Assembly (NCBI RefSeq): GCF_003334335.1
Contig: NZ_QOWQ01000001.1
Length of the DNA stretch: 64,000 nucleotides
Direction: 5' to 3' (one strand)
DNA from: Escherichia coli
GTDB lineage: Bacteria; Pseudomonadota; Gammaproteobacteria; Enterobacterales; Enterobacteriaceae
The notes under the pieces were generated by a model. That model did no database searches and had not been told where the DNA came from. It saw nothing but the letters and a program-made list of their open reading frames with translations. How positions within the stretch are numbered: the stretch's first letter is position 1; each line of letters starts with the position of its first letter. The position numbers and the translations under genes were made by a program. Shown here one piece after another: positions 31,830-50,569 of this stretch.

Positions 31830-31984
31830 ATTTATCTTCGCCGTAATACTTCCCCATTTTGTTGTAAATAAAAAGCGTTTACGCAATGCAATCCTTTTGT
31901 AACAACCCAGGTAAAACACCTTATTTTCAAGTTGTTAAATAAGTGGTTATCTACGCTTTTAACAAACGATTGATGGAATATTTT

Positions 31985-33595
31985 ATGAAAGGGAAATCTG
32001 CATTAACTCTTCTGCTCGCTGGTATATTTTCGTGCGGCACATGCCAGGCGACAGGGGCAGAAGTGACGAGTGAATCTGTATTTAACATTCTTAATTCCAC
32101 GGGGGCAGCAACAGATAAAAGTTATTTATCGTTAAATCCAGATAAGTATCCTAATTATCGTCTTCTGATTCACTCAGCCAAATTACAAAATGAAATAAAG
32201 AGCCACTATACCAAAGACGAAATTCAAGGATTGCTAACATTAACAGAAAACACACGAAAGTTAACGTTGACGGAGAAACCCTGGGGAACGTTTATTCTTG
32301 CTTCTACTTTCGAAGATGACAAAACAGCGGCAGAAACCCACTATGATGCTGTCTGGTTGAGGGATAGTTTATGGGGCTATATGGCATTAGTATCAGATCA
32401 GGGAAATAGTGTAGCCGCAAAAAAGGTTCTGCTCACCCTGTGGGATTATATGTCTACGCCCGACCAGATTAAGCGGATGCAGGACGTCATTAGCAACCCA
32501 AAACGACTGGATGGAATTCCCGTGCAAATGAATGCTGTGCATATCCGATTTGACAGCAACTCCCCCGTGATGGCAGATGTGCAGGAAGAAGGCAAGCCGC
32601 AGCTGTGGAACCATAAACAAAATGATGCTTTAGGTCTTTACCTTGATCTCCTTATACAAGCAATCAACACTGGTACTATTAACGCTGAAGATTGGCAAAA
32701 AGGTGACCGATTAAAGTCGGTTGCGCTGCTGATTGCTTATCTGGATAAAGCCAATTTCTATGTTATGGAAGATTCCTGAGCATGGGAAGAAGATGCCCGA
32801 TTAAACACATCTTCCGTTGCACTGGTGACCTCTGGACTGGAACGTTTGTCAAACCTACTCTCGAAGAAAGACTCTGTTTTTGTCTCTGATTTACTACGCG
32901 AAGCTAAAGTCAATGAACTGGATGAAACTCTTTCAACAACGAGGTTGAACCACCTCATAGATAAAGGTTATGAAAGAATAACGTTACAGCTTGATTTAGG
33001 GGGAGAATCCCCAGGTTATCTGGAAAAAGATAAACATTACAGAGAAGCCGATGCGGCTTTACTTAATGTTATTTATCCTACAAATCTTTCAAAGATAAAC
33101 ACCAGAAGAAAAGAGCAAGTTCTAAAAATAGTTAAAAAACTAGCAGGTCCGTATGGTATAAAAAGATACGAGAAGGATAATTATCAGTCGGCAAATTTTT
33201 GGTTCAATGATATTAAAACCGATACCGATCAAAATTCGCATGCAAAAAGAGAAAAGAGCTTCATTCCATCAACAGAAGCAGAATGGTTTTTTGACTCATG
33301 GTATGCAAAATCAGCAGCAATTGTTTATAAAGAATCAAGAAAAGAAGAGTATTTGAATGACTCAGTACAATTTATGAATAGATCATTGGCCCAAATAACA
33401 GGCGAGAATATGATTGGTGCAAATGGCAGGAGCGTACCAGAAATGGCACTTCCCGAAAGCTATAACTATATCCACAAGTCGGGAACTTTGCATGAAGCGC
33501 CAAGCCCTATCATTCCGCTAAATTGGTCGAAAGCTTCAATGACTCTCATGTTGAAAGAGATGTCCAACCTTATCAATGATGAGGGAATTAAATAG
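31985..33595 (+). pseudogene. ygeQ: Secreted glycoside-hydrolase-15-like (glucoamylase-like) protein interrupted by an in-frame TGA at 32777-32779
   Basis: ORFs 31943-32779 and 32825-33595 are in the same frame. There is an N-terminal signal peptide, MKGKSALTLLLAGIFSCGTCQA. The stop falls in YVMEDS*AWEED, directly before a WEE motif typical of the GH15 catalytic region. The K-12 remnant is, as I recall, ygeQ. Confidence 0.7.
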
Positions 33596-33726
33596 TTTTC
33601 ATAATGAGTTACAGCACAACGTTGGGTATTGACTGAGCAAGATGAACGACAAGGACAACGACATCAGCCTTATGAGGAGCAAGAAAATGAAAGCAAATTC
33701 GAAAACGATCAGAAGGATGAAAGTTA

Positions 33727-34674
33727 ATGTTCGGTCTGAGGAAAGTAAATCGAAACACTCATACGTTTGAAACCACTTTTCAAAATTGGAAAGAAAATGG
33801 CGAAGATGTTGCATTATTAATGCCCGAATTTAGTGCTAAATGGCTACCGATAGCAGAAGAGAGTGGCAGCTGGTCTGGATGGGTATTGCTTGGAGAAATA
33901 TTTCCCTTAATTTCATCTGAGCTCGCTGGGATGGCTTTAATGCCAGAAACGGAAAGGTTAATAGGGGAATGCCTCAGTTTATCCAGTTCCCCGTTAAATC
34001 TAAAGCATCCTGAACTAAAATATAATCGTTTGCGCGTAGGTAAAGTATTTGATGGAGTATTGAGCCCTGCTCAACCACTAATAAGAATATGGACAGGGGA
34101 ATTGAATCTTTGGTTAGATAAAGTCACAGTCTGCCAATACGGAAACGCTCCAGCGTTAGACAAAAAATCGTTATATTGCTCCATTCATTTTGTAATTGGA
34201 TTTAGTAAAACATGTTACAGAAGTCTTGTTGATATTGAAGTTGGTGATGTTTTATTAATCTCAAATAATTTGGCTTATGCGGTTATTTATAATACAAAAA
34301 TTTGTGATTTAATTTATCCAGAGGAGTTAAAAATGGCTGATCATTTTGAGTACGAGGAAGATTTTGAAACAGATGATTTTGATATCAAAAAAAACGAGAG
34401 TGAGATTTATGATGAAAATGACGATCAGATGATTAATAGTTTTGAAGACTTGCCTGTAAAAATTGAGTTTGTTCTTGGTAAGAAAATAATGAATCTATAT
34501 GAAATAGACGAACTCTGTGCAAAAAGAATAATATCTCTGCTTTCTGAATCTGAGAAAAATATAGAAATACGTGTAAATGGCGCGCTAACTGGCTATGGCG
34601 AACTTGTTGAAGTGGATGATAAATTGGGCGTAGAGATTCATTCTTGGTTATCAGGGCATAATAATGTCAAATAG
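33727..34674 (+). CDS. epaO: T3SS cytoplasmic sorting-platform / C-ring protein (SpaO/YscQ family)
   Basis: 315 aa. The C-terminal SpoA domain reads KIEFVLGKKIMNLYEIDELCAKRII...GELVEVDDKLGVEI. It is syntenic with epaP. Confidence 0.88.
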   Translation: MFGLRKVNRNTHTFETTFQNWKENGEDVALLMPEFSAKWLPIAEESGSWSGWVLLGEIFPLISSELAGMALMPETERLIGECLSLSSSPLNLKHPELKYNRLRVGKVFDGVLSPAQPLIRIWTGELNLWLDKVTVCQYGNAPALDKKSLYCSIHFVIGFSKTCYRSLVDIEVGDVLLISNNLAYAVIYNTKICDLIYPEELKMADHFEYEEDFETDDFDIKKNESEIYDENDDQMINSFEDLPVKIEFVLGKKIMNLYEIDELCAKRIISLLSESEKNIEIRVNGALTGYGELVEVDDKLGVEIHSWLSGHNNVK

Positions 34675-48383: not shown

Positions 48384-49185
48384 GATTAACCTCACGGTAA
48401 GACAGGGTTAAACAGTTTGCCACTTCATGTTGGTTATAGTTTTTATTGCATGCCATAACAATCATCCCCGGTGAGGATTTTGCAAGAGGGAAGTATAACC
48501 ACGGATGTTTTTTACAGTTAATCCCCGAATCCAGTATCCGTGTTTTATATTTATCGAACTCTTTCAACCCATCAATTGTATCTTCTGTTACATTAAAATG
48601 GCAGCCATTAATTTCCGCAACAGTCTTGTAATCCTTGAAAAATGGCTTCGGTTGATTATTATTCCATAGCCAATATGCAGAATATGCGCCTATGACAAAT
48701 GCGCTCAACATAATTAGATGACTTTTTATATTTTTGAGGATTTTGTTATTGAAATTCTTTGCGCCACCAATGCTCTCTTTGTATCCCGCATTAACTTTTA
48801 TGGCAGGTGGGGCATTGTGTGTATGTGCGTCTGTTGACGAGTTTATTACATGATTTTGTATGTTAATGTCATTATGGATCTTGAATCCTCTTCTCGGCAC
48901 GGTTGCAATTAGCGAGTGGGTAGTATCACCAACAGCGCGAAATCCGCGTCTGATAATGGATATGTTCTGATATAACGTGTTAGTAGGCACACGCATACCT
49001 TCTTCTTCCCAGACTCTGGTGAAAAAATCTTGTTGTGCAACCACATCAGGAAAAGCTTCAAGTAGAAGTGATAAACATCGACTGGCTGGCGTTGTCAGAA
49101 CGACGTTAAGATCGGCGTTATGTACCGATATTAATTTTCGGTGCTCAGGCCAGAACTCGATATTATCGTTAATAATCCAGTACAT
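48376..49185 (-). CDS. yqeI: ToxR/CadC-like membrane-anchored transcriptional regulator
   Basis: 269 aa. It has an N-terminal OmpR-type winged helix (...TNTLYQNISIIRRGF...VPRRGFKI), a central TM helix (LIMLSAFVIGAYSAYWLW) and a periplasmic C-terminal domain. Confidence 0.88.
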   Translation of the reverse strand: MYWIINDNIEFWPEHRKLISVHNADLNVVLTTPASRCLSLLLEAFPDVVAQQDFFTRVWEEEGMRVPTNTLYQNISIIRRGFRAVGDTTHSLIATVPRRGFKIHNDINIQNHVINSSTDAHTHNAPPAIKVNAGYKESIGGAKNFNNKILKNIKSHLIMLSAFVIGAYSAYWLWNNNQPKPFFKDYKTVAEINGCHFNVTEDTIDGLKEFDKYKTRILDSGINCKKHPWLYFPLAKSSPGMIVMACNKNYNQHEVANCLTLSYREVNRD

Positions 49186-49518
49186 ACGTCAATAAACACT
49201 AAATCAATCGAAATGGAGATCACATAGTTTGCTAAGTATATTGGTATTTACGGCATAAATATATATTAATTTTATATTTATCATGATGATTGAAATGAGG
49301 CTTTAATGTTGCAACGTAAAACTTTACGTAAATTAACATGGTTAACATTTATGCCACTATTGTTTGTAAATTCATATTTCGTAATGCTTCTGAATTTTTC
49401 GTGTGATGGTTTTAAATACTATGGTGTTTACTCTTGAGGGGACGGCCTATTTATAAAATACGGACATTTCAATAAATGCCCGTATAAACAGAGTATGATT
49501 CTGGCTGGTCGTTGAGTA

Positions 49519-50151
49519 TCAATGTTGGACCGAATGTGAACGAATAAATAATTCGTTTATTTTACCACCCATTCTCTTTTCGATTCGTTGCTTGTACGCG
49601 TAGATGCTACGGATATCCATATCCAGAACTTCAGCAATCTGATATGGATTATAACCAGAAACCATATACCCCATTATGGTGAATTCCATCTGAGTTAATG
49701 TGTTACCTCTGGTAAATGATAAATAACGACCAATAAATAGTTGTCTGATCTTTTCATTGGCAACATCAAGACCATCATCATTATATATGACAGCAGATAT
49801 TGCTGAGTTGTGTTTTCGCCAGTAATTAGCTAACGATTGCATATTGCGGTCGCTGACTAAAACAATCCCCATGTCAGTACTTGCAAGATAGTCAATCCAG
49901 TCTTTTTCAAGGAATAGACGTAAAAAACTTACTGAAAAATCGACAAAAATATATCCGCTTAATCTCGCATTGTGGTTTTTTGTTAAGATACCTTCTACCA
50001 CACCACGATTAAAATATGAACTTTCTTCGGGCCACATACAAAAACACGAGTTTGCGCAATACTGCAAACGCGGTGACTCTTCTGGCATTATTTGGCAATG
50101 CATTGAGCAACTATTGCATGTAAGACTTTTATAACGACTACAAAGCCCCAT
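49519..50151 (-). CDS. yqeH: LuxR-type HTH regulator
   Basis: 210 aa from MGLCSRYKSL. The C-terminal HTH reads LTQMEFTIMGYMVSGYNPYQIAEVLDMDIRSIYAYKQRIEKRMG. Confidence 0.85.
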   Translation of the reverse strand: MGLCSRYKSLTCNSCSMHCQIMPEESPRLQYCANSCFCMWPEESSYFNRGVVEGILTKNHNARLSGYIFVDFSVSFLRLFLEKDWIDYLASTDMGIVLVSDRNMQSLANYWRKHNSAISAVIYNDDGLDVANEKIRQLFIGRYLSFTRGNTLTQMEFTIMGYMVSGYNPYQIAEVLDMDIRSIYAYKQRIEKRMGGKINELFIRSHSVQH

Positions 50152-50569
50152 GTTAAGAACCTCCCTATCCGTATATAATTGCATAATTTCATTGGTTATT
50201 GATGATGTCAATACACCATGATTTTGTAATTTTGCCGGGAAAAATTGCGATTAATCTGTATTTGCTATAATTCTGAGTAAGGCATTTAAAAATGCATTTC
50301 TCGTTATCAAATATGATTATGTTTCACTGATTTAATCTTGCATGGTTGAGAGCGGTCCAGATAACTATCTCATGGTATAAGAATATCTATATCGCAAATT
50401 GTTTTTGAATGACCAGAAGATATCTTGCGAATCTAAGTTATGCATCTTAAATAGTCTTATTTAAGATGTTCAGATCTCTTTGTGTGTTTAACTAACTGAT
50501 AATACTAGGATATGACGAGAGAAGTGATAGGGTGGAATAATAACAAATGAATATTATGAAAAATGGAAT

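Follow-up and report, generated by a model that had tools for sequence, protein, structure and literature searches.

Several versions of ETT2, the second type III secretion system of Escherichia coli, have been described, including the one in enteroaggregative E. coli (EAEC) 042, which is accepted as the intact reference, the degenerate island of O157:H7 (Sakai type) and the remnant in K-12 (ygeQ-IS2-ygeN...yqeH, IS2 being an insertion sequence), and SPI-1, a pathogenicity island of Salmonella (inv/spa/prg/org), has a homologous gene set and operon layout. The term 'widespread mutational attrition' for the general pattern in ETT2 reportedly goes back to Ren et al. (2004). Here we describe the ETT2 island at the glyU tRNA gene in a 64,000-nt stretch of an E. 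coli genome (RefSeq assembly GCF_003334335.1, contig NZ_QOWQ01000001.1), and this whole stretch is what we call the window. ETT2 has a reported G+C content of ~37%, compared with ~51% for the chromosome, and a 2024 review of the system lists isoforms with 4.99-, 5.68- and 8.74-kb deletions at the eiv end (PMC11068852). The island in the window is very probably the common 8.7-kb-deletion isoform, i.e., what is left of an SPI-1-type injectisome, decaying and incapable of secretion.

This feature is already known, and it is the most common form of ETT2 rather than a new decay state. It therefore carries little weight as a discovery, being a standard example of ETT2 'mutational attrition' in its commonest form. 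The gain is a cleaner description, with an exact junction, lesions that were missed earlier, the relationship to K-12 and the prevalence across 5,426 genomes. There is also a warning: the 'frameshifted' call that the Prokaryotic Genome Annotation Pipeline (PGAP) gives epaO is an artefact of annotation, and simple dN/dS tests are weakened by recombination inside the island.

The original prediction, made from the sequence alone, placed an AT-rich ETT2 block directly after tRNA-Gly(CCC), and this is where we find it:

31756..31829, + strand: tRNA-Gly(CCC), glyU, the island anchor (ARAGORN; the sole tRNA found in the window)

G+C content is 31-39% over approximately 33-51 kb and ~52% in the flanks, which agrees with the low G+C of ETT2. 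The site agrees as well (adjoining glyU, between actS/xdhA and yqeG/yqeF), and the epa, epr, org, yge and yqe genes are colinear with the ETT2 of EAEC 042 (EC042_3044-3075) and in the same orientation. Nucleotide identity to 042 is 94.6-97.8% in colinear blocks, and the retained proteins are 85-100% identical. E. coli O141:H4 strain P13-6 (NZ_CP080223.1) matches with 99.98% identity over window positions 28700-53400 and 100% identity over the 18.7-kb ETT2 region. Gene identities are supported by Pfam and NCBIfam profile searches, which bear out the gene list of the original prediction (EpaO-S, EprH-K, OrgA/B, a transglycosylase, a class II chaperone and regulators), in the case of OrgB weakly. 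No tRNA-derived direct repeat (att site) occurs elsewhere in the window, and the island contains no IS elements, att repeats or long repeats, all of which were sought as island bounds or as a cause of deletion.

Alignments were made with two loci: L002, of O157:H7 type, whose eiv block is 100% identical to that of O157:H7 strains, and EAEC 042 (L011). This was a check that the original prediction had proposed. The island is colinear with each of them save for a single gap of 8,737 bp relative to L002 and 8,735 bp relative to 042. The gap and the sequence at its right edge are as follows:

33600..33609, no strand: deletion junction, joined at 33608/33609 within CAYAATGA, which matches imperfectly between the two ends apart from 5 exact nt (AATGA)
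33600..33727, + strand: eivJ (SpaN/InvJ-like) 3' remnant, the last ~129 nt

On its left side, the deletion begins 13 bp beyond the GH15 stop codon, and on its right side it stops 129 nt short of the eivJ end. Between them, the window has lost a ghoT/ortT-like gene, eivF, eivG (secretin, SctC), eivE (gatekeeper), eivA (SctV), eivC (ATPase, SctN), eivI (stalk) and most of eivJ (needle-length ruler). A tblastn search of all 64 kb with EivF, EivG, EivE, EivA, EivC, EivI and EivJ from an intact locus found solely a 39-residue EivJ tail (33608-33724), so the eivF to eivI genes are truly absent from the window. The earlier statement that the secretin, export gate, ATPase, InvE, InvI and InvJ are missing thus stands, except that 129 nt of eivJ survive, and the window is also, as stated, free of translocator and effector genes. 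Relative to SPI-1, the window has members of the PrgH/I/J/K, OrgA/B, SpaO-S, InvH, SicA and HilA families but lacks InvG, InvA, InvC, InvE, InvI, InvF, translocators and effectors, and its InvJ is a stub.

A single glyU-proximal deletion of ~8.74 kb running from eivF to eivJ is the mark of the 8.7-kb isoform, and the window has it. The deletion has the same size, and is at the same eiv end, as those of the published 8.74-kb isoform (a survey of avian pathogenic E. coli, in PMC11068852) and of septicaemic O78 ETT2, which suggests that they also share a junction. This work is also the source of the view that ETT2, when truncated, retains some non-secretion role (PMC6030553). In intact ETT2, the ghoT/ortT-family toxin gene (59 aa) sits between the GH15 gene and eivF (L002 5036-5215; L011 39865-40044), and it has gone with the deletion.

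SctC, SctV, SctN and their fellow components are required in SPI-1-type systems. The window retains full-length genes for the SctD and SctJ rings, the SctRST core, the SctF needle and the SctI rod, but SctC, SctV and SctN are absent and SctU (epaS) is frameshifted. The remaining apparatus genes are:

33727..34674, + strand: epaO (SctQ), full length at 315 aa (489 bits against NCBIfam NF006018, over positions 3-303 of 303; same open reading frame (ORF) in 042, 91% identical)
34664..35329, + strand: epaP (SctR), intact (Pfam FliP; 97.3% identical to 042)
35339..35599, + strand: epaQ (SctS), intact (100% identical to 042)
35601..36368, + strand: epaR (SctT), intact (profile match; comparison with 042)
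36377..37497, + strand: epaS (SctU), pseudogene (1-base deletion at nt 705, giving ORFs of 243 aa at 36377-37108 and 130 aa at 37105-37497)
37559..37852, - strand: InvH-like pilotin lipoprotein gene, intact (Pfam InvH, E 5e-31)
38611..39792, + strand: eprH (SctD, inner-membrane ring), intact (Pfam PrgH, E 3e-75)
39806..40045, + strand: eprI (SctF, needle), intact (profile match; 100% identical to 042)
40065..40397, + strand: eprJ (SctI, inner rod), intact (profile match)
40394..41128, + strand: eprK (SctJ, ring lipoprotein), intact (Pfam YscJ)
41144..41724, + strand: orgA (SctK), pseudogene (1-base deletion at nt 52; a TTG-initiated ORF at 41209-41724 spans residues 23-193)
41666..42373, + strand: orgB (SctL-like), 235 aa, in frame via an A9 run (the NCBIfam OrgB model matches weakly, at E 6e-16 and short of its curated cut-off)

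No secreting injectisome is possible with this set because SctC, SctV, SctN, SctW, SctO and SctP are absent, SctU is split, SctK is truncated and there are no translocators. The split in epaS falls 22 residues upstream of the NPTH autocleavage site, and this lesion is common to all five of the junction-bearing loci that we examined.

Three of these genes call for comment. The InvH-like pilotin gene, which was not in the list of the original prediction, has been kept although the secretin has been deleted. The reading frame of orgB is set by a poly-A tract near nt 267. It is A9 in the window, where the gene is in frame, A8 in K-12 and the B1 loci, where it is frameshifted, and A7-C-A in intact loci. 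The tract is prone to slippage, and in it the window is unlike even K-12, to which it is otherwise nearly identical. A search of OrgB against solved structures gave nothing useful. Finally, PGAP calls epaO frameshifted (feature 33687-34674 in the window), a call which we reject: 042 and three other intact loci receive the same flag, and the SctQ model is matched along its entire length by the 315-aa ORF, which starts at ATG 33727. The flag was given to every non-O157 locus (L003, L009, L010, L011), and we treat it as an artefact of an O157-based reference. The call leans on an O157-style upstream start, and the 315-aa SctQ ORF is present in all of them.

To measure prevalence, we used a 400-bp probe centred on the join and a sample of 5,426 complete E. 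coli genomes. The junction is contiguous, at 99-100% identity, in 1,923 of them (35%), so the window shares its junction sequence with the other members of the isoform. These carriers make up 58% of the 3,295 genomes that match either side of the probe, the other 1,372 matching without the junction. At least 80% of the 8.7-kb eiv block is present in 972 genomes and part of it in 362 more (1,334 in total); the block is always chromosomal, with a median of one place per genome and a maximum of two. With 1,923 carriers of the junction and 972 genomes in which the eiv block is largely present, the window has the single commonest ETT2 configuration. In another frequent isoform, just 43% of the eiv block remains, eivF, eivG, eivE and part of eivA having gone, and this form probably matches the published 4.99-kb deletion.

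The named systems differ from the window in distinct ways. Relative to EAEC 042, the window lacks 8,735 bp and has lesions of its own in epaS, orgA, ygeK, pbl, ygeF and the GH15 gene. The O157-type locus is the same island and is also degenerate, and window positions 39700-41700 are nearly identical to its allele; however, it keeps the eiv block, and the genes damaged in it are epaR, eprH, orgB, invH-like and yqeJ, whereas the window has the deletion and other lesions. K-12 matches the window at 100% up to position 33121 and at 99.96% from 41326, with an IS2 in between. The two share the stop at codon 265 of the GH15 gene, the stop at codon 52 of ygeK and the frameshifts in pbl and ygeF.

In K-12, the IS2 replaces window positions 33122-41325 (8.2 kb), so epaO to eprK are lost, and orgB has the A8 frameshift. 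K-12 retains 56% of the 18.7-kb region and is 100% identical there. Its missing segment spans the position of the 8.7-kb junction, and the window island, having no IS element, is not of the K-12 type. The state in the window appears to be the one that came first, with K-12 derived from it through a further deletion of 8.2 kb that is associated with IS2. The original prediction had seen here a different and less reduced state than that of K-12; less reduced is right, but the form is the same, to which K-12 has added its own deletion.

To assess decay, we compared five junction-bearing loci (the window, SE11, 2-C14-1, E62 and UTAK-23) with three intact ones (AF39, 2012C-4221 and D8), plus the O157-type locus. 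The intact loci have no broken apparatus genes, the junction-bearing loci have two to six each and the O157-type locus has four (epaR, eprH, orgB and invH-like), along with a frameshift in yqeJ, which is outside the apparatus set. Lesions in epaS, pbl and ygeF are common to the junction-bearing loci. Others are specific to lineages: stops in epaO, a 1-base deletion in epaQ, a 1-base insertion in eprI, a 1-base deletion in eprJ, a frameshift (window) or stop (2-C14-1) in orgA, frameshifts in orgB, extra hits in epaS and a stop in etrA. We also calculated dN/dS per group by the Nei-Gojobori method and counted nonsynonymous and synonymous changes (N:S), with each polymorphic site counted once:

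Apparatus genes: dN/dS 0.26 in junction-bearing and 0.12 in intact loci; N:S 114:111 and 134:268 (odds ratio 2.05, p 3e-5)
Regulators: dN/dS 0.51 in junction-bearing and 0.10 in intact loci; N:S 24:12 and 39:96 (p 6.5e-5)
Flanking core genes: dN/dS 0.026 in junction-bearing and 0.032 in intact loci; N:S 2:22 and 4:40 (unchanged)

Constraint is relaxed in the junction-bearing group, yet omega is not 1. The dN/dS check proposed in the original prediction has thus found relaxation but not a value near 1, and recombination confounds it.

That recombination is plain from the distribution of divergence. The junction-bearing loci diverge by 1-1.9% in the half of the island from the GH15 gene to orgB and by 0.1-0.4% in the half from ygeK to yqeH. 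A 500-bp scan revealed a sharp mosaic in which 39700-41700 (eprI-orgA) is 0-0.2% from the O157-type allele and 2-5% from the B1 junction-bearing alleles, with 38700-39700 (eprH) having the reverse pattern of affinity. Recombination has therefore moved blocks between lineages, including eiv-positive and eiv-negative ones, and it follows that part of the variation within the junction-bearing group predates the deletion or evolved under selection elsewhere. For this reason, we have dropped dN/dS as a pure measure of post-deletion change: mosaic ancestry mixes changes from before and after the deletion, so the figure is indicative only.

The mosaic belongs to the apparatus half (33700-42700 compared with L002, L004, L006, L007 and L008), and the ygeK-yqeH half scans at 0-0.6% across junction-bearing loci. 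At 50200-50700, in the yqeH-yqeG intergenic region, the window is 4.6-4.8% from the other junction-bearing loci and identical to K-12 alone, while neighbouring stretches are below 1%, so recombination may have replaced a patch here locally.

Decay set in long ago and is still under way, contrary to one of the two possibilities raised in the original prediction, that of recent decay. The junction occurs in both K-12-like and SE11-like lineages, which are up to 1.9% apart in the adjacent genes and have each added lesions of their own, so the deletion is old. It likely arose once, long ago, via illegitimate recombination mediated by microhomology, and would then have spread by descent and homologous recombination through phylogroup A and B1-type lineages, with the remaining apparatus genes presumably eroding since then, lineage by lineage.

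Some observations count against seeing the island as no more than a secretion-incapable remnant in decay. Ten of the twelve apparatus genes (epaO, epaP, epaQ, epaR, invH-like, eprH, eprI, eprJ, eprK and orgB) are full length relative to 042, with proteins 89-100% identical, so the original prediction was right that the structural genes are mostly full length, although it had missed that the other two, epaS and orgA, are frameshifted. The apparatus dN/dS in the junction-bearing group, as given above, is well under 1 and falls short of complete neutrality. Deleting truncated ETT2 clusters lowers virulence and serum resistance, and the authors proposed a non-secretion role at the cell surface (PMC6030553), meaning that a remnant need not be inert. 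As for the name of the isoform, we have equated the window deletion with the published 8.74-kb one by its size, its position and a review (PMC11068852), which makes junction-level identity with the isolates of Ren 2004 and Wang 2016 a presumption.

The first three of these points would suit a reading in which selection keeps EprHIJK, EpaPQR, EpaO, OrgB and the pilotin as a partial envelope structure, with an effect on surface balance, serum resistance or flagella. Also in its favour, none of the five junction-bearing loci has a broken epaP, epaR, eprH or eprK (S:N of 17:8, 17:11, 14:11 and 13:6, respectively), albeit in a sample too small to decide on retention, and phenotypes have been published for deletions of eprHIJK as well as of truncated clusters (PMC11068852, PMC6030553). 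However, eprI and eprJ are frameshifted in three of the five loci, epaO is broken in three, orgB in four and epaS in all five, and K-12 has lost the whole epaO-eprK block. The needle, rod, sorting-platform and switch genes are still being eroded, which speaks against their having a conserved role. N:S in the junction-bearing group is double that of the intact loci, imported alleles can explain the low N:S of some genes (e.g., in 39700-41700, at 0-0.2% from the O157-type) and the published phenotypes may include regulator effects. We therefore consider this reading unlikely. Its narrower form, that the partial basal body (rings, needle, rod, SctRST, SctQ, SctL and pilotin) of this phylogroup A-type lineage in particular was kept, or was re-imported from O157-type alleles, for a non-secretory role in the envelope, strikes us as quite unlikely. 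A non-secretion role is a published hypothesis (PMC6030553), neither proved nor excluded by the present data.

It is highly improbable that the cluster still secretes with a secretin, export gate and ATPase supplied in trans by LEE (the enterocyte effacement locus), the flagellum or an ectopic eiv block. What speaks for this idea is a remark by Fox et al. that a disrupted ETT2 might be complemented (PMC7058095). Against it, the 64-kb window holds no such gene, and the 5,426 genomes point the same way: the eiv block is chromosomal and usually in one place, and its 1,334 positive genomes fit inside the 1,372 that match without the junction, so ectopic eiv in junction carriers is unlikely. These counts agree with there being no ectopic copy, as a matter of consistency and not of proof. 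Moreover, epaS and orgA are themselves broken, and injectisomes are not known to take over SctC, SctV and SctN from other systems. We give practically no credence to the idea that faulty assembly produced the gap, or that the deletion is very recent and confined to one strain. The suggestion of recent decay in the original prediction was all that spoke for it, and it is refuted by the same junction in 1,923 independent complete genomes, whose carriers include SE11 and K-12-like backgrounds up to 1.9% apart in neighbouring genes.

If the remnant of the 8.7-kb isoform has residual activity, it would most likely come from the surviving transcription factors YgeH, EtrA, YqeH and YqeI acting on genes elsewhere, a mode of action for which there are experimental reports from other strains. 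The island is probably silenced by H-NS under normal conditions. In EAEC 042, YgeH activates the ETT2 operons and is itself H-NS-silenced, and the full-length YgeH of O157 appears to be non-functional (PMC4210603). EtrA and EivF repress the LEE in O157, and yqeH, yqeI, ygeK, etrA and ygeG mutants of avian pathogenic strains are altered in flagella, biofilm and serum resistance (literature including PMC11068852). The original prediction counted five regulators, and all can be identified (EtrA, YgeK, YgeH, YqeI and YqeH), but ygeK has a stop at codon 52. We considered whether the lack of lesions in ygeH, yqeH and yqeI was a sign of selection and rejected this: a rough estimate puts the number to be expected in the regulator half at only ~2, and finding none is then not significant. 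The estimate scales the apparatus lesion rate, because diversity within the group is ~5x lower in the regulator half than in the apparatus half.

The other genes of the island are:

31985..33595, + strand: GH15 (glycoside hydrolase family 15) gene, ygeQ/pkgA, a pseudogene (stop at codon 265; SE11, 042 and L003 have the gene intact)
37854..38354, - strand: etrA, LuxR-type regulator, intact (profile match; comparison with 042)
42595..43227, + strand: ygeK (etrB), LuxR-type response regulator, pseudogene (stop at codon 52)
43246..43748, - strand: pbl, SLT lytic transglycosylase, damaged (frameshift at nt 438, 158 aa compared with 167 aa)
43831..44049, - strand: ygeI, small protein of unknown function, intact (annotation and profile search)
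44217..45593, - strand: ygeH, HilA-like regulator, intact (profile match; 95.2% identical to 042)
45928..46419, - strand: ygeG, SicA/LcrH-like class II chaperone (TPR), intact (profile match)
46644..47133, - strand: ygeF, pseudogene (C-terminal frameshift; a poly-A run has lost 2 bases at nt 399)
47327..47752, + strand: yqeK, function unknown, intact (annotation and profile search)
47901..48383, - strand: yqeJ, function unknown, intact (annotation and profile search)
48376..49185, - strand: yqeI, OmpR/ToxR-type winged-helix regulator, intact (profile match)
49519..50151, - strand: yqeH, LuxR-type regulator, intact (profile match; 100% identical to 042)

Small indels also separate the window from both L002 and L011: it has ~80 bp fewer just after the tRNA (31839-31843) and ~228 bp fewer between ygeF and yqeK (47195-47203). 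Some other strains have extra integrase-bearing elements at glyU before ETT2 (L006 4085-17576; L008 8259-17576), of which the window has none. One such element, ~13 kb long, carries genes for a major capsid protein and an ImmA/IrrE protease, and another has an integrase and IS66.

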